Positions 750 through 9,646 of a DNA stretch of 10,385 bases are shown one piece after another. Source of the DNA: a virus (Duplodnaviria; Heunggongvirae; Uroviricota; Caudoviricetes); IMG/VR virus record IMGVR_UViG_3300034022_000539; one strand, given 5' to 3'. Every line of letters begins with the position of its first letter. Within the stretch, counting starts at the first letter, position 1. The notes under the pieces were generated by a model, which did not search any database, was not told the DNA's origin, and saw only the letters and a list, made by a program, of their open reading frames with translations. The position numbers and the translations under genes are program-made.

Positions 750-1073
750 CTATTTACGTGTTCTCTTCAGATTTTCTTTCTTAGTTTCTATAAAAACCTC
801 TTCTGCGTTGTCTACTGTATTGTTGGTTGTTAAACCCCATTGCAAAATAAACCAATTGATTTCTTTCTCTGCAACTGAGTTACTCATTCTTAGTTTTGTT
901 TTGAGAATCTGCATAGCTTTCTTTATGAATTCTTGTTCCTTTTCTCTAGTAGTGCTATATTGCATATACCAGTCGTTTTCATTTACGACATCTTCATATT
1001 TCTTGCCATGTGGTTCAAGCTGAAGATTGATTAATTCAATAAAGACTTCGCGTGTTTTTTCTCTTCTAATCAT
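750..1073 (-). CDS. Hypothetical protein (107 aa)
   Basis: ORF follows clpP after an 11-nt gap, on the same strand, and ends before the terminator. No recognised domain. Confidence 0.8.
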   Translation of the reverse strand: MIRREKTREVFIELINLQLEPHGKKYEDVVNENDWYMQYSTTREKEQEFIKKAMQILKTKLRMSNSVAEKEINWFILQWGLTTNNTVDNAEEVFIETKKENLKRTRK

Positions 1074-1081
1074 GGTTTATA

Positions 1082-1089
1082 TATTTATA
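1082..1089 (-). promoter_or_regulatory. Putative T4-late-type promoter box (TATAAATA) overlapping the clpP stop codon
   Basis: Exact TATAAATA on the minus strand, 8 nt upstream of the ATG at 1073. Confidence 0.35.
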
Positions 1090-1774
1090 TTTGTTTTGGT
1101 TTTATGATCTCATCTATAATACCATATTTAACTGCTTCTTCTGCATTTAACCAAAAATCTCGAGTAGCATCTTTCATTACTCTTTCTGGTTTCTTGCCAC
1201 AATATGATCCTAATAGATTAAATAGTTCATAGTTTACTTTTTGCCATTCTGCCCAATCTACTTCAGCGTCTTGTATATTTCCACTAAAACCACCCGAAGA
1301 TTGGTGTAACATTGTTGTCGAATGTCTCAAAGACGCTCTTTTACCTTTAGTTCCAGCACCTAATAAGACTGAACCCATTGATGCTGCCATACCAGTATTA
1401 ACTGTGCGTATATCACATGGTATGTATTCCATAACGTCTACCATAGAAAGCCCTGACTTAACTGAACCACCTGGAGAATCGATATGCATTGTAATATCGT
1501 CTGCGCTATTGCTTGATAAAAACATTAATTGTGCTTGTACAACAGTGCTCATATTGTCATCTACTGGACCTGCAACCCATAATAATCTATCTGCCATTAA
1601 TCTTGAAAAAATATCCATTTGAGTAACTCGCATTTCACGCTCCTCTAAAATATAAGGAGTCATTGAAGCTTGCTTACTTGCAATTGAACTATATAAGTCT
1701 AAGTGTGATCCACCTAAATTGAATTCTGATTTTGCGAATCTGTGAAATTCTTTTTCTTTTGGAAAATAATTCAT
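1085..1774 (-). CDS. clpP: ATP-dependent Clp protease proteolytic subunit, Bacteroidota-type N-terminus
   Basis: Motifs MTPYILEER, DIFSRL..DR, SPGGSV, GMAASMG (Ser132), MLHQ (His157), RDFW (Asp206). The triad spacing of 25 and 49 residues matches E. coli Ser97/His122/Asp171. Confidence 0.97.
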   Translation of the reverse strand: MNYFPKEKEFHRFAKSEFNLGGSHLDLYSSIASKQASMTPYILEEREMRVTQMDIFSRLMADRLLWVAGPVDDNMSTVVQAQLMFLSSNSADDITMHIDSPGGSVKSGLSMVDVMEYIPCDIRTVNTGMAASMGSVLLGAGTKGKRASLRHSTTMLHQSSGGFSGNIQDAEVDWAEWQKVNYELFNLLGSYCGKKPERVMKDATRDFWLNAEEAVKYGIIDEIIKPKQI

Positions 1775-2082
1775 TATTGTATCTGTTTTTGTATTTGTTT
1801 AATTAAATCACACGTTTCATACTCTTCAATAAGAGAAAAATAGTTCTTTGCTTTGTTCAAAGATTTTTCATAACCAGATTCTGGTAATACCATCTCGTAT
1901 TCTCTGTCTTCGGCATCTACTAAAATTGCTAGTAAATGTGAATCAGGTTTCCTCTCTATCTTATTTAGTATATATTCTACAATTCTTCTATAGAATATGT
2001 CATACTTGGACATTAAGAGTTTTTCAAAGTCTTCTGCTAAAATATGTGTGGGATCAATATGTATTCTTGGAGGTGTATTCAT
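1774..2082 (-). CDS. Small hypothetical protein (102 aa) with a C-terminal UVR-like coiled-coil motif
   Basis: The track starts it at GTG 2103. The ATG at 2082 follows the upstream stop (TAA-C-ATG) and is more likely. Its stop overlaps the clpP start (TAATG). Tail: LNKAKNYFSLIEEYETCDLIKQI. Confidence 0.75.
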   Translation of the reverse strand: MNTPPRIHIDPTHILAEDFEKLLMSKYDIFYRRIVEYILNKIERKPDSHLLAILVDAEDREYEMVLPESGYEKSLNKAKNYFSLIEEYETCDLIKQIQKQIQ

Positions 2083-2083
2083 G

Positions 2084-2932
2084 TTATAACGTAAAGTAAT
2101 CACTTAATATTGCTTTGTAGTTAACATCACTGTCTCCGCTTGTTTGATCTACTCTTGTTACGAATTCAATTCCAGCATCTGTCAAAAATACATTACCGTC
2201 TTTGTAATCTATAAGTGGTTGTTTTAGAATTAAACTAGATACAGTATCTTTTAAATCTTCTTGTTTGATTTTTTCAGCTAGTTCAAAATGTCTTTCGTAA
2301 AAGTGTAAGTTGTCTGCGAAATGGTAATAATCACCTAATTCTAAAGATTTATACTTGTCATCTTTTTTAAGAATCAAATATACAGATTGCATTAAGAATG
2401 AAAAGAACGGTGCATCAAATGTAAGACCATAGAAAACATCATTTGATCTCATCTGAATCTTCATGTTTAATTTATTATCTCTAATAAAGAAGTTAGCGTA
2501 CATTGTACATACGAAATCTTTATTGCCTTTGAATTGAAACTTAGGTTGATTAAAGAACATGATAGCTTGACGACTATTGTCATCAGCTAATAATGAATCA
2601 ACTACCCAACCAATTTGTTCATTATTGATAACTAATGCACCATAATTTGAATTGATTTGGTTTGTACCTTGATTTGTGATACCTTTCCAGAAATTTGAAA
2701 ATTTATTAATGTAACTAATATCTGTGTCTCTGTGAAGATACCATGCCATTTCACCTGCAAAGTATTTCCAATTGAATTTTCTTGATTCAAAATTTGCAAT
2801 TGGTTTTTTAGGATCAATTGTTATATCAGCTAATAATAATTCTTTGACTTCAAGATCTCTCGGTTTCGAGAGATCTCCGAATGTGTCTATTTGTAATATA
2901 GCTTCTTTAAGTATATTTGAAAAGTCTGTCAT
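2084..2932 (-). CDS. Thymidylate-synthase-superfamily enzyme, dCMP hydroxymethylase (T4 gp42)-like
   Basis: Motifs EMAWY, INSNYG, DDNSRQAIM, KDFVCT (Cys142), IRDNKLN..QMRSNDVFYG, LTFDAPF (Asp173, 31 residues after the Cys), LHFYERHF. These match gp42 motifs as recalled (ELEWY, INSNYG, SDFMCT, MRSNDVVFG, RND179, LHVYSRHF). Confidence 0.8.
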   Translation of the reverse strand: MTDFSNILKEAILQIDTFGDLSKPRDLEVKELLLADITIDPKKPIANFESRKFNWKYFAGEMAWYLHRDTDISYINKFSNFWKGITNQGTNQINSNYGALVINNEQIGWVVDSLLADDNSRQAIMFFNQPKFQFKGNKDFVCTMYANFFIRDNKLNMKIQMRSNDVFYGLTFDAPFFSFLMQSVYLILKKDDKYKSLELGDYYHFADNLHFYERHFELAEKIKQEDLKDTVSSLILKQPLIDYKDGNVFLTDAGIEFVTRVDQTSGDSDVNYKAILSDYFTL

Positions 2933-2945
2933 TTGTTAATTGTTT

Positions 2946-2959
2946 TTATAGTAGTTATA
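2946..2959 (-). promoter_or_regulatory. Repeated intergenic motif TATAACTACTATAA (putative promoter or operator)
   Basis: 13/14 identical to 4993-5006. It lies 13 nt upstream of the ATG at 2932. Confidence 0.35.
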
Positions 2960-4975
2960 CTATAATTTAATAAATAGTTTATCTTCTGATGTAATCTTAG
3001 TGATTGTGTATTCTATATCTTTTTTAATACTTTGATCGATAATTGCATCTGCAACAATATCTTCAACATATTTTTGTATAGCTCTTTTTACTGGTCTTGC
3101 ACCATAAGATTGATCGTATCCTTCTTTTACTAAGAAATCTTTAGCTTGTTTAGAAAACTTAAAGAAGTAACCTTCGTCTTGCATTCTATAAGAAAAGTTA
3201 TCTAGTTCTATTTGAACAATTTTTAATATGTCAGTGTTCTCTAATTGATCGAATAAAACAATATCATCTAATCTGTTTAAGAATTCAGGACTAAATTTGT
3301 TCTTTAATTCTTTTTTAATAATGGAATCCATCTTTTTGCTTTCTTCGGCTATTGCTGAGCCACTTGCAAATCCAATTCCTGATCCAAAATCTGCAACCTT
3401 TCTGGCACCAACATTTGATGTCATGATGATAATAGTATTTGTAAAATCTACTGTACGTCCACTTGAATCTGTTAATCGACCTTCATCTAATACCTGTAAT
3501 AAAGTGTTGAATACATCTGGGTGGGCTTTCTCGATCTCATCAAACAAGACAACTGAATAAGGTTTACGTCTAACCGCTTCAGTTAATTGACCGCCTTCCT
3601 CGTGTCCTACGTAACCTGGAGGAGATCCTATCAAACGACTCACATTGAATTTTTCTTGATACTCACTCATATCAATTCTAATCATAGCATCAATATCTCC
3701 AAATAAGTATTCGGCTAAAGCTTTTACTGTTTCAGTTTTACCAACACCAGTTGGTCCTAAGAACATGAATGATCCACTTGGTTTTCTATGACTAGCAACA
3801 CCAGTTCTAGATCTTTTAATAACACTACATAAAGCATCTACCGCTTTGTCTTGTCCGATAATCATTTTCTTGATTTCTGCGGCCATGTTCTTAATCATCT
3901 TAAGATCGTCAACTCCTAATTTATTTACAGGAATTCCAGTTTGTGTAGATATTGTTTCAGCTATATCTTCTACTGTGATTTTTAATTTAGTCACCTTAAG
4001 TGACTCTTCCCATAAAGTAGTCTCTTGAGCAATTTTATTTTCTATTGACAATTGATCATCTCTAAGTCTTGCAGCAACTTCATAATCTTGTTCTTCGACT
4101 GCTTTTTTCTTTTGTAATTTAATGTCTTCAGATTGTTTCTCAAGGTTTTTTATCTTTGATGGAATTTTAACCTCTAGTAAATGTGTTCTTGCACCAGCTT
4201 CATCCATTAAATCAATGGCCTTGTCAGGAAGTTCTCTTTGTTTAATATAACGATCACTCATTCTTACACATGCATCAATAGCTTCATCTGTATATTCTAC
4301 AGAGTGATACTCTTCGTAGTTATGTTTGATACGCATAAGAATATCAATGGTATCTTCAACTGATGGAGCATCTACAAACACTTCTTGGAAACGTCTAGTT
4401 AATGCACCATCATCTTCAATATTCTCGCGATATTCATCTAATGTTGTTGCACCAATACATTGTACTTGTCCACGTGCTAATGCTGGTTTAAGGATATTAG
4501 ATGCATCTAAAGCACCGCTAACACCACCTGCACCAACAATTGTATGTAACTCATCAATGAATATAATAACATTATCATTGGCTTTAAGTTCCTCTACAAT
4601 ATTTTTCATTCTCTCTTCGAATTCACCCCTGTATTTAGTACCTGCTACGATGGTAGTCATATTCAATGAAATAAGTCTTTTATTAATCAAGACTCTTGCC
4701 ACTTTCTTATCAACTATTCGTTGTGCGATAGCTTCTACAATTGCAGTTTTACCAACACCTGGATCACCTAAGATAATTGGATTGTTTTTCTTTCTTCGTG
4801 CCAAAATCTGACAAATTCTATGAATCTCTTTATCTCTACCGATAATAGGATCCAATTTACCTTCAGCTGCAGCCGCAGTCAAATCCTCACCGAATTCATC
4901 TAAGAATGGTGTAGTCTTTTTCTTTTGGTTGCCCTTTCTGTTTTTCTCGTTTTCGTATCCGTCTGCTAATGACAT
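2960..4975 (-). CDS. clpC: ClpC-type AAA+ unfoldase lacking the N-terminal Clp-repeat domain (671 aa)
   Basis: NBD1: GDPGVGKT, GTKYRGEFEER, IFIDELH, LTRRFQ. Short UVR-type M-domain: AVEEQDYEVAARLRD. NBD2: GPTGVGKT, GYVG, LFDEIEKAH, GARPV. ClpP-docking IGF loop at 3368-3376. Only about 20 residues precede TPFLDEFG.DLT. Confidence 0.9.
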   Translation of the reverse strand: MSLADGYENEKNRKGNQKKKTTPFLDEFGEDLTAAAAEGKLDPIIGRDKEIHRICQILARRKKNNPIILGDPGVGKTAIVEAIAQRIVDKKVARVLINKRLISLNMTTIVAGTKYRGEFEERMKNIVEELKANDNVIIFIDELHTIVGAGGVSGALDASNILKPALARGQVQCIGATTLDEYRENIEDDGALTRRFQEVFVDAPSVEDTIDILMRIKHNYEEYHSVEYTDEAIDACVRMSDRYIKQRELPDKAIDLMDEAGARTHLLEVKIPSKIKNLEKQSEDIKLQKKKAVEEQDYEVAARLRDDQLSIENKIAQETTLWEESLKVTKLKITVEDIAETISTQTGIPVNKLGVDDLKMIKNMAAEIKKMIIGQDKAVDALCSVIKRSRTGVASHRKPSGSFMFLGPTGVGKTETVKALAEYLFGDIDAMIRIDMSEYQEKFNVSRLIGSPPGYVGHEEGGQLTEAVRRKPYSVVLFDEIEKAHPDVFNTLLQVLDEGRLTDSSGRTVDFTNTIIIMTSNVGARKVADFGSGIGFASGSAIAEESKKMDSIIKKELKNKFSPEFLNRLDDIVLFDQLENTDILKIVQIELDNFSYRMQDEGYFFKFSKQAKDFLVKEGYDQSYGARPVKRAIQKYVEDIVADAIIDQSIKKDIEYTITKITSEDKLFIKL

Positions 4976-4990
4976 ATATTAATTTAGTTT

Positions 4991-5008
4991 TATTATAGTT
5001 GTTATATG
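4991..5008 (-). promoter_or_regulatory. Repeated intergenic motif CATATAACAACTATAATA upstream of clpC
   Basis: 15/18 identical to 9661-9678 and 13/14 core identity with 2946-2959. It lies 15 nt from the clpC ATG. Confidence 0.4.
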
Positions 5009-5020
5009 TATCAATTTCAT

Positions 5021-5476
5021 TTAGTTTACAATATTATCGGCAGCGTATGCACCCGGTAAAAGATCAGGTTTACATCTAGCTTTAAATCCTAAAGACTCTA
5101 CATATCCAACAGCTGCGCTAACTAGTTTATTGGATTTTTTAGCTGGATCTGTGTTGTAATCTAAATCTATCGTTGAGACTTCAATTCCATGTTCTCTTAA
5201 ATATAATGCAGTTTCACATGATAATTCGGTTTCCTTCCACAATCTTGTCCACATATCTCTAACAATGGGAATCTCTTCTCTTTTATAAATCACATGACAA
5301 CCTGTGTTTGATATATGAAATACTACGGTCACTGCATAAACAGTTTTGATAGCTTTGTTTTGACTATCGCATCCGAGATATATTTTTACATCAAGACCCT
5401 CGTTTTCTTTAAGAATATTTTTAACGTATGAAGCTAGTTCAAATTGAGGTGGACCCGTTAGTTTTTGAAATTTCAT
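5021..5476 (-). CDS. RNase H-like fold protein, YkuK/DUF458 family
   Basis: Family-typical motifs IYLGCDSQ, RLWKE, IDLDYN, KP...GAYAAD, with acidic residues in RNase H-like positions. 151 aa. Confidence 0.8.
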   Translation of the reverse strand: MKFQKLTGPPQFELASYVKNILKENEGLDVKIYLGCDSQNKAIKTVYAVTVVFHISNTGCHVIYKREEIPIVRDMWTRLWKETELSCETALYLREHGIEVSTIDLDYNTDPAKKSNKLVSAAVGYVESLGFKARCKPDLLPGAYAADNIVN

Positions 5477-5498
5477 TATTTAACATATTAGTATATGC

Positions 5499-5506
5499 TA
5501 TTTATC
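5499..5506 (-). promoter_or_regulatory. Putative T4-late-type promoter box (GATAAATA)
   Basis: Identical 9-mer GATAAATAG to 665-673, in the 49-nt gap upstream of the ATG at 5476. Confidence 0.4.
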
Positions 5507-5525
5507 TCAAAAAGTAGGGTATGAA

Positions 5526-5825
5526 TTATACGTAAAGTGTTAGTATATATGCAAGCTTATAACCGATGAATGCTCCTAATGCAGTTGGAATTGGAAACAC
5601 TATTAATTTACCAAGATCTGTTACGTATTTAGGTCTATTAACAATAGTTCCCATATATGAATAATATACTAAGTATCCAACTAATACTGCCCAGTCAATA
5701 TGAGCCGAAATAAAAACCACAAGTATGGCTCCTAAAAATCCAAAAATAAAGTTATCACGAGTAGCTTCCCAAATTTCTTTACGAGTTGCATCTTTCCATT
5801 CTTTAACAATTTTCTTTAAGCGCAT
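5526..5825 (-). CDS. Small integral membrane protein (99 aa, about 3 TM helices)
   Basis: Basic N-terminus followed by hydrophobic stretches FIFGFLGAILVVFISA, WAVLVGYLVYYSYMGTIV and LIVFPIPTALGAFIGYKLAYIL. It starts 3 nt after the kdsB stop. Confidence 0.8.
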   Translation of the reverse strand: MRLKKIVKEWKDATRKEIWEATRDNFIFGFLGAILVVFISAHIDWAVLVGYLVYYSYMGTIVNRPKYVTDLGKLIVFPIPTALGAFIGYKLAYILTLYV

Positions 5826-5828
5826 ATA

Positions 5829-6527
5829 TTATTGATTGATAAATTTATTGGCACGTTCAAGATCTTCTGGCGTATCAATACCAAATGACTTGTATTCTGT
5901 GAATTCAGAAACTACTTGGATTCCATTATCCATCCAAGTCAATTGCTCTAATGAATTATTTATTGAGTTTTCTGAAGGTTTCAATTTAGATATTCTATTT
6001 AATGTTTCCTTAGAATATCCATATATTCCGATATGTTTAAATATAAAATTGTTTTTATCATAAACATTGCTCCGCGTAAACATCACTGCAATACCCATAT
6101 GATTAGTTAAAATCTTAACTGCATTCGGATCAATAGATTCATTTTCAATTAAGTCGGTTTTAAGAGTAGCTACTGAGTTTGGATTTGCCTTAATCAATTT
6201 TATAATTAGGTCAATATCCGATGGATTGATAAAAGGTTCATCACCCTGTACATTAATAATAATATCGCTATTAATTGATCGATGTGCTTGAATAACTCTC
6301 TCTGTTCCAGTTTCACATTCGGTTGTTGCTATTACTTTAGCTCCGAAATTTTCAGCAACTTCAGATATTAATCGACTATCTGTGGCAATAATTACTTCAT
6401 CTGCATTAGATTGACATGCTCGTTCCCAAGTATGTTGAATCATTGGTTTGTCACCGATCATTGCTAATGGTTTTCCAGGTAATCGAGTTGACTTAAATCT
6501 TGCAGGTATAATAACCGTCACTTTCAT
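5829..6527 (-). CDS. kdsB: 3-deoxy-manno-octulosonate cytidylyltransferase (CMP-Kdo synthetase)
   Basis: Motifs IIPARFKSTRLPGKPL, TGTERV, NVQGDEP, PNAVK, FTRS, HIGIYGY, LEQL, GIDTPEDL. Confidence 0.92.
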   Translation of the reverse strand: MKVTVIIPARFKSTRLPGKPLAMIGDKPMIQHTWERACQSNADEVIIATDSRLISEVAENFGAKVIATTECETGTERVIQAHRSINSDIIINVQGDEPFINPSDIDLIIKLIKANPNSVATLKTDLIENESIDPNAVKILTNHMGIAVMFTRSNVYDKNNFIFKHIGIYGYSKETLNRISKLKPSENSINNSLEQLTWMDNGIQVVSEFTEYKSFGIDTPEDLERANKFINQ

Positions 6528-7123
6528 TATTGCTCTTTACTCTTTTGACCTAAATAACCGCTGTGATGTCTTTTTGAATATTCTCTTTTAGTGAAGCCAA
6601 TTTTCTTCATTAACTCTACCACTATAATATCTCCAATTACTGTCATCAGTGTTGTTGAAATAGTAGGTGTTAATCCAAGTGGACAAATTTCTTCTGAATC
6701 ACCAGTATGCAATACAACATCTGATTCGATTGCTAATGGACTGTCTATTTTACCAGTGATAGAAATTACTTTAACCTTCGGTTGTAAAATCCTAGACAGC
6801 ATGATTAATTCACTGATCTCTCTGGTTTTACCAGAATTTGATAATAATATAAGAACGTCGTGTTTACAAAGAATTCCTAAATCACCATGTTGAGCTTCGC
6901 TTGGATGCAAATAAACAGCAGGTGTTCCAGTTGAACACAAAGTCTGTGCTATGTTTATACCAATTTGTCCAGCCTTTCCCATTCCACTAACAACTATTTT
7001 TCCACCTAAATCGTGTACTTGATATTTGATTATATCCACGGCAGATTCGAATGAATCATTTATTGGAATATTTTGAATTGCTTCAACTTCTAGTTGAATT
7101 ATTTTTTTAATATTATCTTGCAT
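6527..7123 (-). CDS. kdsD: Arabinose-5-phosphate isomerase, SIS-domain-only (no CBS domains), Bacteroides type
   Basis: Motifs SGMGKAGQI, STGTPAVYLHPSEAQHGDLG, SNSGKTRE, CPLGLTPT.STT, EYSKRHH.GYLG. At 198 aa it closely resembles the stand-alone SIS API of Bacteroides fragilis as recalled. Confidence 0.9.
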   Translation of the reverse strand: MQDNIKKIIQLEVEAIQNIPINDSFESAVDIIKYQVHDLGGKIVVSGMGKAGQIGINIAQTLCSTGTPAVYLHPSEAQHGDLGILCKHDVLILLSNSGKTREISELIMLSRILQPKVKVISITGKIDSPLAIESDVVLHTGDSEEICPLGLTPTISTTLMTVIGDIIVVELMKKIGFTKREYSKRHHSGYLGQKSKEQ

Positions 7124-7126
7124 AAT

Positions 7127-8242
7127 CTAGTTTGATAGTGGTGCTTTGATTTCTGGATGTGATTCGTAATTTACCAGTTTAATTGAGTTCCTGTCTATTT
7201 TATTAAATTCAGTAATGTAACCATCATAATATGTATACTCAAAATCTAATTCAATATTGGGCAATTTCATAGGTTCTCTATTTAATTGTTCTTTTGCCTG
7301 TTCAATATGATTAGAATATAGGTGAACATCTCCAAGATTTCCAATTAATTCATCAGGAACCATGTTAACGCGTTTTGCTAACATCATCAATAATAGACCA
7401 TACGAAGCAATGTTAAATGGTAACCCCAAGAATGTGTCTACACTTCGCTGATTCCACATTAATGAGATTGCTCGAGCTGGTATTTCATTTTCATCATATT
7501 GATTATGAGTGTAGATATTTCCAGCAGGGTTATGTGTATTATTCCATAATTTTGCTCGCTCTTCTAAACTCAACTCTCTTGTATAAACTTGAAATCCATA
7601 GTGACATGGCGGAAGTACCATTTGATCAATTTCTGCAACATTCCATGCATTAACCATTAATCTTCTAGAATCTGGATTCCTTTCAAGATCTGCAATAAGT
7701 CGAAGTATTTGATCGTACCAAAGAGAACCGTGTCCTTTCGAACCATCATCGTTTTTATAATGCATCCAACCTTGCCATTGTCTCCATTGTTTGCCATAAA
7801 CTGGACCTAAATCTCCAAGTTGGTAACCTGTCAAATCTGGAATAAAATGAGTAGCAGGACTTTTAATCTTCTCGATCCAATCTCGATCATCTTTGTAGTT
7901 CTTAATTCCCTGGATAAATTGTTCCATCGACATTGGATCTACACCATGTGCAACACATTCCTTTTCATATCCTTTGTATGCATCACCATTCCAAATATTA
8001 CAATTGTTGTCAACTAAGAATTTGATATTGGTATCGCCCTGTAAAAACCAAAGTAACTCAGTTACCATGGTTTTAAATGCCATTTTCTTGGTAGTCAATA
8101 ATGGAAATCCTTCGGACATTTTGTGTCTAATCTGACGACCAAAAATTGAGACAGTTCCTGTTCCAGTTCTATCTTGTTTCTCGATACCATTGTCAAGAAT
8201 GTCTTTAAGTAATTTTAAGTAATCGTGTTCTATGTTATTCAT
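7127..8242 (-). CDS. thyA: Thymidylate synthase ThyA with several insertions (371 aa)
   Basis: Motifs DRTGTGT, FPLLTTKK, ELLWFL.GDTN, GDLGPVYGKQWR, PDSRR, LPPCH (Cys213), QRSVD.FLGLPFNIASY (Asn277, dUMP-type), GDVHLY.NH. Confidence 0.97.
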   Translation of the reverse strand: MNNIEHDYLKLLKDILDNGIEKQDRTGTGTVSIFGRQIRHKMSEGFPLLTTKKMAFKTMVTELLWFLQGDTNIKFLVDNNCNIWNGDAYKGYEKECVAHGVDPMSMEQFIQGIKNYKDDRDWIEKIKSPATHFIPDLTGYQLGDLGPVYGKQWRQWQGWMHYKNDDGSKGHGSLWYDQILRLIADLERNPDSRRLMVNAWNVAEIDQMVLPPCHYGFQVYTRELSLEERAKLWNNTHNPAGNIYTHNQYDENEIPARAISLMWNQRSVDTFLGLPFNIASYGLLLMMLAKRVNMVPDELIGNLGDVHLYSNHIEQAKEQLNREPMKLPNIELDFEYTYYDGYITEFNKIDRNSIKLVNYESHPEIKAPLSN

Positions 8243-8396
8243 TTTTGTCTAGTCTTCTTTTAATTATCTCTTCAATAGAGGATTCAATCTCTTCTTGTGT
8301 ATCATCATCTAAATTATACCACCAATCATCAAATCCGCTTCTATCACAAAGTGCATCAAAAATTTCTAATACACATTTTTTAATTTGTCTACTCAT
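8235..8396 (-). CDS. Small acidic hypothetical protein (53 aa, MSRQIKKCVLEIFDALCDRSGFDDWWYNLDDDTQEEIESSIEEIIKRRLDKNE)
   Basis: Translated by hand; below the track's length cutoff. It fills the gap exactly: ATGA overlap with the upstream ORF and an 8-nt ATGAATAA overlap with the thyA start. Confidence 0.8.
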   Translation of the reverse strand: MSRQIKKCVLEIFDALCDRSGFDDWWYNLDDDTQEEIESSIEEIIKRRLDKNE

Positions 8397-8608
8397 ATGA
8401 AAAGATCAAATGTTTCATCTTCTTCCACCCACATATAAATGTCTGTCTCTAATGGATTTGATTTGCCAGGAATATAATCAGGATTGCTAACAGTTTTCCA
8501 TTTCCTACCACATCTTTTACATGAACACTTACTCGGCATCCATCCGAAGTTATAAGAGTATTGATGTCCTCTAATCTTGCAAATAATTTGAGCTATCGTC
8601 CTTTTCAT
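8393..8608 (-). CDS. DUF1660-like small phage protein, probable Zn-binding (71 aa)
   Basis: IICKIRGHQY...CSCKRCG matches the C-x3-GH...C-x-RCG pattern of DUF1660-type prophage proteins. Confidence 0.6.
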   Translation of the reverse strand: MKRTIAQIICKIRGHQYSYNFGWMPSKCSCKRCGRKWKTVSNPDYIPGKSNPLETDIYMWVEEDETFDLFI

Positions 8609-9008
8609 CTAATTCATGTATTTTAAAACTAATTTTTTGTAATGAAGCATTTAGTCTTTCTCGTGACTTTGCAAATTCTGTGCGAATCCACCCCTCACGA
8701 CCTTCTTCGATCAAAGCCTTATTAACAATTTTATCAATCTTCTTGTATATTTCATTACTTAATTGATCTGGACTCTTATGACTCGACATATAAAATATAT
8801 CTTCACGGTGAATCCCTTCAAATGTTAAATGTAATTTTGCAGATCTGCTATAAATATCAACAACTTCTACTTGGACACTTACTTTGACAAATGGTCCAAG
8901 TTTGCTTAAAAACCATGGTTTTGATTCATCCTCGTTTTTAGGTTGGTCTAATGAAACCTTATAAATATCATTTAGATATTCTTGTACAATAAATTCAGGA
9001 TATGTCAT
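8571..9008 (-). CDS. Hypothetical protein (145 aa)
   Basis: ORF abuts the upstream stop at 9009 and overlaps the next ORF by 38 nt. No domain recognised. Confidence 0.75.
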   Translation of the reverse strand: MTYPEFIVQEYLNDIYKVSLDQPKNEDESKPWFLSKLGPFVKVSVQVEVVDIYSRSAKLHLTFEGIHREDIFYMSSHKSPDQLSNEIYKKIDKIVNKALIEEGREGWIRTEFAKSRERLNASLQKISFKIHELDEKDDSSNYLQD

Positions 9009-9200
9009 TTAATCTAGATATTTGTTAAACATTTCTTTTGCTTTCTCTAATTTCTCAGTGCGCTCATCCATAATTACATTAATAATGAAGTTAGCTTCTC
9101 TATTAGAACATTCATTTTCAATAATTCTAATATATGTTTCTACATCAACACCCAATTCTTCAGCAATAGCCATATCCATCATGTCATATAATCCTGCCAT
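9009..9200 (-). CDS. Hypothetical protein (63 aa)
   Basis: Tiles tightly between its neighbours (1-nt and 0-nt gaps). Helical and acidic. Confidence 0.75.
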   Translation of the reverse strand: MAGLYDMMDMAIAEELGVDVETYIRIIENECSNREANFIINVIMDERTEKLEKAKEMFNKYLD

Positions 9201-9201
9201 G

Positions 9202-9429
9202 TTATTTCTGTTTTTCTATTAGAATTTCTTTTAAGATAACACAATGCTCATAAAGTCCATCCTTTTCAAATGCTATTAATGCAGCGCGTAAATCTTGAGG
9301 TGTACCTAATTCTGCCCATTCTTTGAATTCTTGAGTACCACCCAAATAATCAATTAATTTGTTTGGTTGCACCAATTCACTATAAGCCTTGTCTAAAGTT
9401 TTAATGTGTTGTTCGTTTAAATTATCCAT
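9202..9429 (-). CDS. Small hypothetical protein (75 aa) with a C-terminal UVR-like motif
   Basis: Tail LRAALIAFEKDGLYEHCVILKEI has the same spacing as the tail of ORF 1774-2082. Confidence 0.75.
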   Translation of the reverse strand: MDNLNEQHIKTLDKAYSELVQPNKLIDYLGGTQEFKEWAELGTPQDLRAALIAFEKDGLYEHCVILKEILIEKQK

Positions 9430-9433
9430 TGTA

Positions 9434-9646
9434 TTATTTTTCAGTTGATACAGTATAAGATTCTCCTTTGATATTACCTACACTTCTAGAAGTGCAACGC
9501 CAGCATAAACCTTTGGTTGCATTTTGATCAATGTACATTTTTTCATTGCAACCACCTTCTGGTGCATAGTCGCCCCATTTTGAGTTTTCAGGGTCATGAT
9601 TCATGCACTTAACCAACTGCATGCCCTTTCTTTGATTTTCTACCAT
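9434..9646 (-). CDS. Cys-rich hypothetical protein, possible Zn ribbon (70 aa)
   Basis: C14-x2-H17, C33 and C48-x2-C51. Preceded by TTAAATAATG, the same start context as the ATG at 5476. Confidence 0.75.
   Translation of the reverse strand: MVENQRKGMQLVKCMNHDPENSKWGDYAPEGGCNEKMYIDQNATKGLCWRCTSRSVGNIKGESYTVSTEK

Follow-up and report, generated by a model that had tools for sequence, protein, structure and literature searches.

Which partner do the small proteins serve that are encoded around a phage ClpC lacking its N-domain? This question is raised by a 10,385-nucleotide (nt) stretch of viral DNA (IMG/VR record IMGVR_UViG_3300034022_000539), analysed at its full length and called the window below. 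It encodes a ClpC-type ATPase without N-domain, a ClpP, and two small proteins with a similar C-terminal stretch: ORF A, a phage protein of 102 amino acids (aa; 1774..2082, with an alternative GTG start at 2103), and ORF B, of 75 aa (9202..9429). Coordinates are window positions unless a locus is named, and all window genes lie on the minus strand. An earlier note had read the common stretch as a UVR-like tail that pairs with the UVR coiled coil in the M-domain of ClpC, while variable heads bring in substrates, the two together replacing the missing N-domain. The analysis described here leads to another answer, in which the hairpin formed by this tail is a module of phage proteins in general, while a ClpC cofactor is plausible in the case of ORF A and improbable in that of ORF B.

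A C-terminal hairpin shared by two protein families

Both reading frames exist as the earlier note described them, and reading of the sequences confirmed that the 23-residue stretches L75-I97 of ORF A and L47-I69 of ORF B share 8 identities in the same register and with identical spacing. A pairwise BLASTP comparison of the two proteins fell short of significance (E=0.088, with 10 residues aligned), and therefore family profiles were used, the gene families compared being those encoded in the window. Alignment of the close-family profiles with hhalign gave P=0.013, a broad family B profile against the smaller family A set gave P=2.4e-4, and when divergent family A members were added, the value fell to P=2.8e-6, with a probability of 88% over 33 C-terminal columns. 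Tested likewise, the 16 other gene families of the window gave P values of at least 0.014 in 15 cases, thus the common tail is not an artefact of composition. The exception was the conserved 107-aa protein encoded downstream of clpP (750..1073), of which residues 11-53 resemble residues 1-39 in the N-terminal half of family B (P=2e-4, probability 47%). ORF A, encoded upstream of clpP, corresponds to the C-terminal half of family B, and the 107-aa protein, encoded downstream, to its N-terminal half. This split match may reflect the shuffling of small helical modules, or chance.

The profile alignments between the two families span only the C-terminal 29-33 columns, and the heads are unrelated, alpha/beta in family A and all-alpha in family B, which bears out the view that the N-terminal parts have nothing in common. 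Both AlphaFold models end in a helix-turn-helix that contains the motif, and the hairpin blocks are predicted with a local distance difference score (pLDDT) of 93-96. The model of ORF A, made with the family alignment, has a pLDDT of 86.7 and comprises three short strands and one long helix, followed by the helices 68-84 and 88-101; its head is of the order beta-alpha-beta-beta and its class is alpha/beta. Model and alignment together place the ORF A hairpin at residues 68-101 (1780..1881), where the two last helices, joined by a turn, carry the motif KSL-x-KA-x2-YF-x2-IEEYETC-x-LIK. The model of ORF B (pLDDT 92.7) is all-alpha with five helices, and the last two of these, 44-56 and 60-74, form the hairpin (9208..9300) with the motif AFE-x2-ELYEHC-x-IL, again based on model and alignment. 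The motif region is the best conserved part of both families, and its consensus comprises a first helix with L-x2-A-x3-[FY], an acidic turn E-E, and a second helix with [YF]-E-x-C-x2-[IL]-K. The hydrophobic face of the hairpin would pack against the head, leaving the conserved acidic tip as the likely contact surface. A metal site formed by the conserved cysteine was considered and dropped, since this is the only cysteine that families A and B have in common.

Neither protein is an ORFan, as had been assumed. Family A counts 288 relatives in a single-sequence search and at least 471 in a profile search, all from marine metagenomes and on contigs of up to 262 kb; the matches listed for the profile search were close relatives. 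For family B, 18 close relatives were found, and in an exhaustive search with a hidden Markov model (HMM) the representatives formed 184 clusters at 50% identity. A few members of family B (P0188, P0192, P0214, P0232 and P0275) are fused behind a common N-terminal domain of approximately 130 residues with a TLAMRI-like motif, and these fused proteins contain no Pfam domain above the cut-off. In PHROGs there were no matches for ORF A or ORF B and four single-member matches across 150 family B members, and in NCBIfam neither of the two proteins had a match. A tblastn search with ORF A against cultured phages gave nothing, and a divergent family A member reached only E=0.4.

The hairpin also extends beyond these two families. 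An HMM of the 32 motif columns detected three further families of small ORFs (87-101 residues) in the sister phages L029-L031, ending in EEYEKC or EDYEKC. The genes of these families cluster 5-7 kb downstream of clpP (L029 18410-20394; L030 19231-20878; L031 10046-11693). Written as a regular expression, the motif matched 55 ORFs, mostly orthologues, in six-frame translations of the collected loci, compared to 0.65 in shuffled sequences. The hairpin is a module that recurs between families, if it is not homologous outright, and the best conserved part of each. The modular architecture put forward in the earlier note stands in so far as a constant C-terminal hairpin occurs on variable heads, in families A and B and in the three families of L029-L031, but its restriction to ClpC does not, as the distribution of family B makes clear.

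The Cellulophaga phages phi19:1 and Nekkels (54-57 kb) encode a family B protein with the full motif AFE-x-HEMYEYC, whose gene overlaps the end of the lysozyme gene. Their complete genomes contain no ClpC relative and no AAA_2 domain, with positive controls detected in 14 of 14 cases, and family B is common in phages without any ClpC, which in part bears out one of the refuting observations named in the earlier note. Since the hairpin occurs in phages with and without a ClpC of their own, it is a general-purpose phage module rather than a tail specialised for docking to ClpC. In the jumbo phages, family B is located several kb away from clpC and just upstream of thyA in every locus that carries it (the window, L006-8, L012, L015, L035 and L092/93). 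The genes overlap in L012 and L092/93, are separated by one gene in L006-8, and by four small genes in the window, where thyA occupies 7127..8242. The same adjacency is found in the short unrelated contigs L094/95, which carry an amidase endolysin. In small siphophages family B adjoins the endolysin gene, and in other contexts a DNA methyltransferase or unknown genes are nearby and thyA is missing; searches for loci with single family B proteins as queries gave few loci. Family B has no tie to phage-encoded ClpC. It travels with thyA in jumbo phages and sits beside the endolysin gene in small siphophages. ORF B is unlikely to be a ClpC cofactor, and its partner is most likely something other than ClpC, although a role of family B on the host ClpC stays conceivable.

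The hairpin and the UVR motif

The Pfam UVR model (PF02151) did not match ORF A, ORF B or their C-terminal parts even at E<=10 (the membership mark being 21.5 bits). It was equally silent for 28 family A, 19 family B and 10 divergent family A sequences, found no match in the Cellulophaga phage genomes, and picked out a single one of the 150 members of the broad family B (E=0.0022). The UVR segments of 69 phage ClpC sequences were also turned into an HMM, which did detect genuine UVR proteins in the collected loci, and at E<=10 found neither family A nor family B there. The M-domain of the window ClpC itself contains a recognisable UVR motif at residues 283-313 (4037..4129; PF02151, E=3.9e-5, 23.7 bits). 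When the hairpin profiles were compared to the alignment of the whole ClpC, the best match was outside the M-domain and non-significant. Offered only the M-domain or UVR segment, the combined motif aligned ELYEHC-x-II with QDYE-x-AA-x-LRD, in the register suggested by the earlier note, with P=0.047-0.22 over 13 columns (P=0.047-0.065 for the combined motif profile against the UVR segment alone). The alignment of the YE-x-C core with the UVR motif of ClpC is thus not statistically supported, the M-domain providing the best match only when nothing else is on offer.

Some leads point in the other direction. For ORF A and ORF B, the nearest Atlas clusters with a Pfam name consist of small viral proteins, 57% and 32% of which carry PF02151 (scores 0.81 and 0.87), and in one cluster of structural neighbours of ORF A, 13% of the members have UVR; these percentages are leads only. 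A helix-loop-helix of approximately 35 residues is present in both AlphaFold models, a generic feature that is no proof of UVR membership. A remote descent of the hairpin from UVR is a possibility.

Gene context and candidate partners of ORF A

Judged by its sequence, the window ATPase (2960..4975) is an N-domain-less ClpC, a class I Hsp100 protein that combines two AAA modules with a short M-domain and has an invariant GIGF loop for docking to ClpP. Pfam recognises AAA, AAA_lid_9, UVR, AAA_2 and ClpB_D2-small and no Clp_N, the PHROG alignment begins only at profile position 159, and 23 residues are all that precede the conserved LDxFGxDLT motif. The description of this protein in the earlier note, as a ClpC that is without N-domain and has its own UVR M-domain, is therefore sound. 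A tblastn search with this ClpC against cultured phages gave 46-53% identity among the matches listed, mostly to unannotated records. The operon runs from an RNaseH-like gene through the N-less clpC, a divergent gene of thymidylate synthase (TS) fold (TS-like; 2084..2932), ORF A and clpP (1085..1774) to the gene for the 107-aa protein. The ATG of ORF A is located 1 nt past the stop codon of the TS-like gene, and its own stop codon overlaps the start codon of clpP as TAATG, in agreement with the predicted translational coupling of one of the two ORFs to clpP.

The context of ClpC was examined in 80 viral contigs with a ClpC relative and in metagenome loci. In the 33 loci with a ClpC at least 68% identical to that of the window, family A follows directly after the TS-like gene without exception, with 1 nt spacing or an overlap. 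Family A accordingly accompanies the N-less ClpC throughout this one clade, where it is always next to the TS-like gene as well. Family B is also present in ClpC-less genomes, and the other N-less ClpC loci described below have neither family nearby. The physical interaction was addressed by predicting the complex of ORF A (alignment of 28 rows) with residues 1-350 of ClpC (34 rows). The interface score (ipSAE) was 0.43, 0.41 and 0.43 in three runs, compared to 0.00 for the best control, with 100% contact agreement and a partner pLDDT of at least 76, resulting in the verdict 'weak support'. The predicted complex would raise binding of ORF A to ClpC from unlikely to a possibility somewhat short of even. 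Pairwise distances within family A correlate with those of ClpC (rho 0.61), ClpP (0.47) and TS-like (0.33), values that were not corrected for phylogeny. When the distance of the D2 domain was removed, the residual correlation was positive for the N-stub, D1 and M-domain of ClpC, and negative for TS-like.

From these data a scheme can be drawn in which ORF A would be a cofactor that is co-produced with ClpP, would bind the N-terminal half of the N-less ClpC (the N-stub, D1 or M-domain), and would tune the assembly of ClpC or its choice of substrates. We consider a ClpC cofactor of this kind, made together with ClpP, the likeliest reading of ORF A, though somewhat short of even odds.

Several observations weigh against this reading. 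Of 80 solved complexes, 58 reach the ipSAE mark, as do 2 of 110 mismatched pairs, but scores at or below 0.60 account for only 7 of those 80 and for both mismatches, so that the score obtained here falls within a range where errors outnumber correct calls, and the prediction named no interface. ORF A adjoins the TS-like gene in all 33 loci, and clpP in only 26 of them; in L018-L024, a gene for a glycosyltransferase-like protein of 279 aa lies between ORF A and clpP. In sixteen other N-less ClpC loci (L048, L049, L051, L053, L071, L074-L077, L079, L083, L084, L086 and L089-L091), family A, family B and TS-like were not found within 10 kb. Elsewhere, the space between clpC and clpP hosts unrelated cargo, for example a 123-aa gene resembling methylglyoxal synthase in L083 (9942-10313, plus strand), and in L084 the two genes directly abut; these arrangements show that the clpC-clpP gap takes varied cargo. 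Synteny alone cannot assign ORF A to Clp or to the TS-like enzyme, and the distance correlations are weak evidence, being confounded by shared phylogeny. Finally, neither family matches known adaptors in Pfam, PHROG, NCBIfam or PDB sequences, and fold searches returned generic helical proteins with Z<=5.8, an absence that does not amount to exclusion.

The fold searches with the ORF A model covered PDB (by Foldseek), AFDB, BFVD and the ESM Atlas, besides a VIA-wide search, and found no characterised fold; the matches were either helical proteins of a generic kind or phage proteins without characterisation. The structural neighbours with a good score (TM 0.6-0.72) were exclusively uncharacterised proteins of uncultured phages, approximately 100 residues long. 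With the ORF B model there was nothing significant in PDB with Foldseek and no match in the Atlas shape search. A ClpS-like fold, with three strands and three helices in approximately 100 residues, had been a candidate for ORF A and was dropped, as neither of the PDB searches brought up a ClpS chain.

How the hairpin could be used can be explained in other ways. It could be a stable folding nucleus that is reused by unrelated small early or accessory phage proteins without a common partner, their gene positions reflecting the gene order of the lineage. This would fit the great diversity of the neighbours of family B (endolysin, thyA, methyltransferase and unknown genes), the generic nature of the fold matches, and the fact that the synteny of family A comes entirely from a single clade, while the match of the neighbouring 107-aa protein to the other half of family B suggests a shuffling of helical modules. 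However, the acidic tip and the cysteine are invariant across families that otherwise differ, pointing to a conserved contact beyond stability, and the complex of ClpC and ORF A passed weakly with controls at zero. We regard a hairpin without common partner as unlikely, yet with an appreciable chance of being correct. Each of the two hairpin families neighbours a TS-fold enzyme, family B being located upstream of thyA and ORF A after the TS-like gene. The hairpin proteins might accordingly partner TS-fold nucleotide enzymes, ORF A the TS-like protein, which is possibly dCMP-modifying, and ORF B ThyA, for example by tethering them into a nucleotide-synthesis complex, with the Clp neighbourhood being incidental. 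ORF A keeps its place after TS-like in all 33 loci even where the glycosyltransferase-like gene parts it from clpP, and family B is found just upstream of thyA both in jumbo phages and in the unrelated contigs L094/95, so that this partnership fits the gene order about as well as the role of a ClpC cofactor does. Against it stand the Cellulophaga phages, which carry family B and no thymidylate synthase gene (PF00303, controls positive), the further family B contexts without thyA, and the family A distances, which correlate least with TS-like. A TS-fold partnership is, in our estimation, rather improbable.

Two versions of a docking tail remain to be weighed against the ClpC cofactor reading of ORF A outlined above. 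In the one, ORF A would be a dedicated cofactor that docks on the N-terminal half of the N-less ClpC via the acidic EEYE-x-C tip. The hairpin family would then be a phage toolkit, in which exchangeable heads on a common docking tail direct the phage ClpCP, or the ClpC of the host where a phage has none of its own, to selected substrates; this appears quite improbable. The other is the UVR pairing proposed in the earlier note. It can draw on a common tail with differing heads, on the location of ORF A within the clpC-clpP operon, on the weak pass of the predicted complex, on the Atlas clusters rich in PF02151 as leads, on the alignment to the UVR segment in the proposed register, and on a true double-UVR gene that adjoins another N-less phage clpC (L086). 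But Pfam UVR misses both families save for one broad family B member, the HMM of the ClpC UVR segment finds true UVR proteins and neither family, the best alignment to the whole ClpC lies elsewhere and is not significant, and family B is found in complete genomes without ClpC and, in jumbo phages, several kb from clpC next to thyA. We consider this pairing very unlikely.

ORF A and ORF B probably come from an uncultured marine jumbo phage, likely with a Bacteroidota host, with which the relatives of ORF B in Cellulophaga phages agree; a megablast search of the window against cultured phages gave no match. The GC content of the window is approximately 31%. In the order of transcription, a methyltransferase-like gene comes first, followed by small genes including ORF B, thyA, a SIS-domain gene and a CMP-KDO-synthetase-like gene, the latter two labels resting on Pfam matches to syntenic genes in related loci. 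These are followed by an ORF of 99 aa (5526-5825), the RNaseH-like gene, clpC, TS-like, ORF A, clpP and the gene for the 107-aa protein. Two small ORFs that flank the ORF B region (8393-8608 and 9434-9646, both minus strand) contain cysteine pairs (CSCKRCG, and CWRC with further upstream cysteines) that suggest zinc ribbons, as read from the sequence. In L018, the 279-aa gene between ORF A and clpP (10735-11574, plus strand) is GT25-like by reading alone, and its position near TS-like could fit a cassette for DNA hypermodification.

Meaning and comparison with known systems

Many large Bacteroidota phages carry their own ClpC-ClpP pair with an N-less ClpC, and a small protein that is fixed in the operon is an obvious candidate regulator. 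To our knowledge, all known ClpC adaptors act through the N-domain. The EEYE-x-C hairpin, in turn, marks a very large unnamed group of small phage proteins, comprising hundreds of marine virome clusters as well as proteins of cultured Cellulophaga phages, and defining this module gives a handle on a part of the phage 'dark matter', whichever its partner is. If the hairpin is merely a structural scaffold, the result would be an ordinary family description.

MecA, McsB/McsA and ClpS are small adaptors that attach to the N-terminal half of ClpC and govern how it assembles and which substrates it takes, which is the role proposed here for ORF A. The differences are that ORF A has no sequence similarity to them, that the fold matches listed include no adaptor, and that these adaptors require the N-domain, which the window ClpC lacks. 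NblA is a helix-loop-helix adaptor of approximately 60 residues that links phycobilisomes to ClpC in cyanobacteria and is carried by some cyanophages. Like the window proteins it has a helical hairpin, and it acts as a ClpC adaptor, but the window proteins have no Pfam NblA match, and they belong to another host group without a phycobilisome context. A phage precedent is Gp53, a 25-kDa protein that is reported to bind ClpC and to stimulate the ATPase like an adaptor. Gp53 targets the full-length ClpC of its Bacillus host, whereas the window phage supplies its own N-less ClpC and ClpP, and no similarity to Gp53 was found.

The UVR motif (PF02151), known from UvrB/UvrC, the M-domain of ClpC/ClpB, and McsA, differs from the hairpin in that Ala-Ala is replaced by x-Cys and R-D mostly by K-x in family A and the window ORF B, and, by reading, the spacing from helix 1 to the aromatic residue is off by one position compared to the ClpC segment. 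What both have in common is a helix-turn-helix of approximately 35 residues, in which helix 2 opens with an aromatic residue and Glu, followed by a small residue and an [IL]-[KR] pair. The 142-aa double-UVR protein of L086 (9345-9770, minus strand), encoded divergently from an N-less clpC, has two genuine UVR motifs that are detected by the ClpC-derived HMM, unlike families A and B, and it shares with ORF A that it is a small helical phage protein encoded next to an N-less ClpC.

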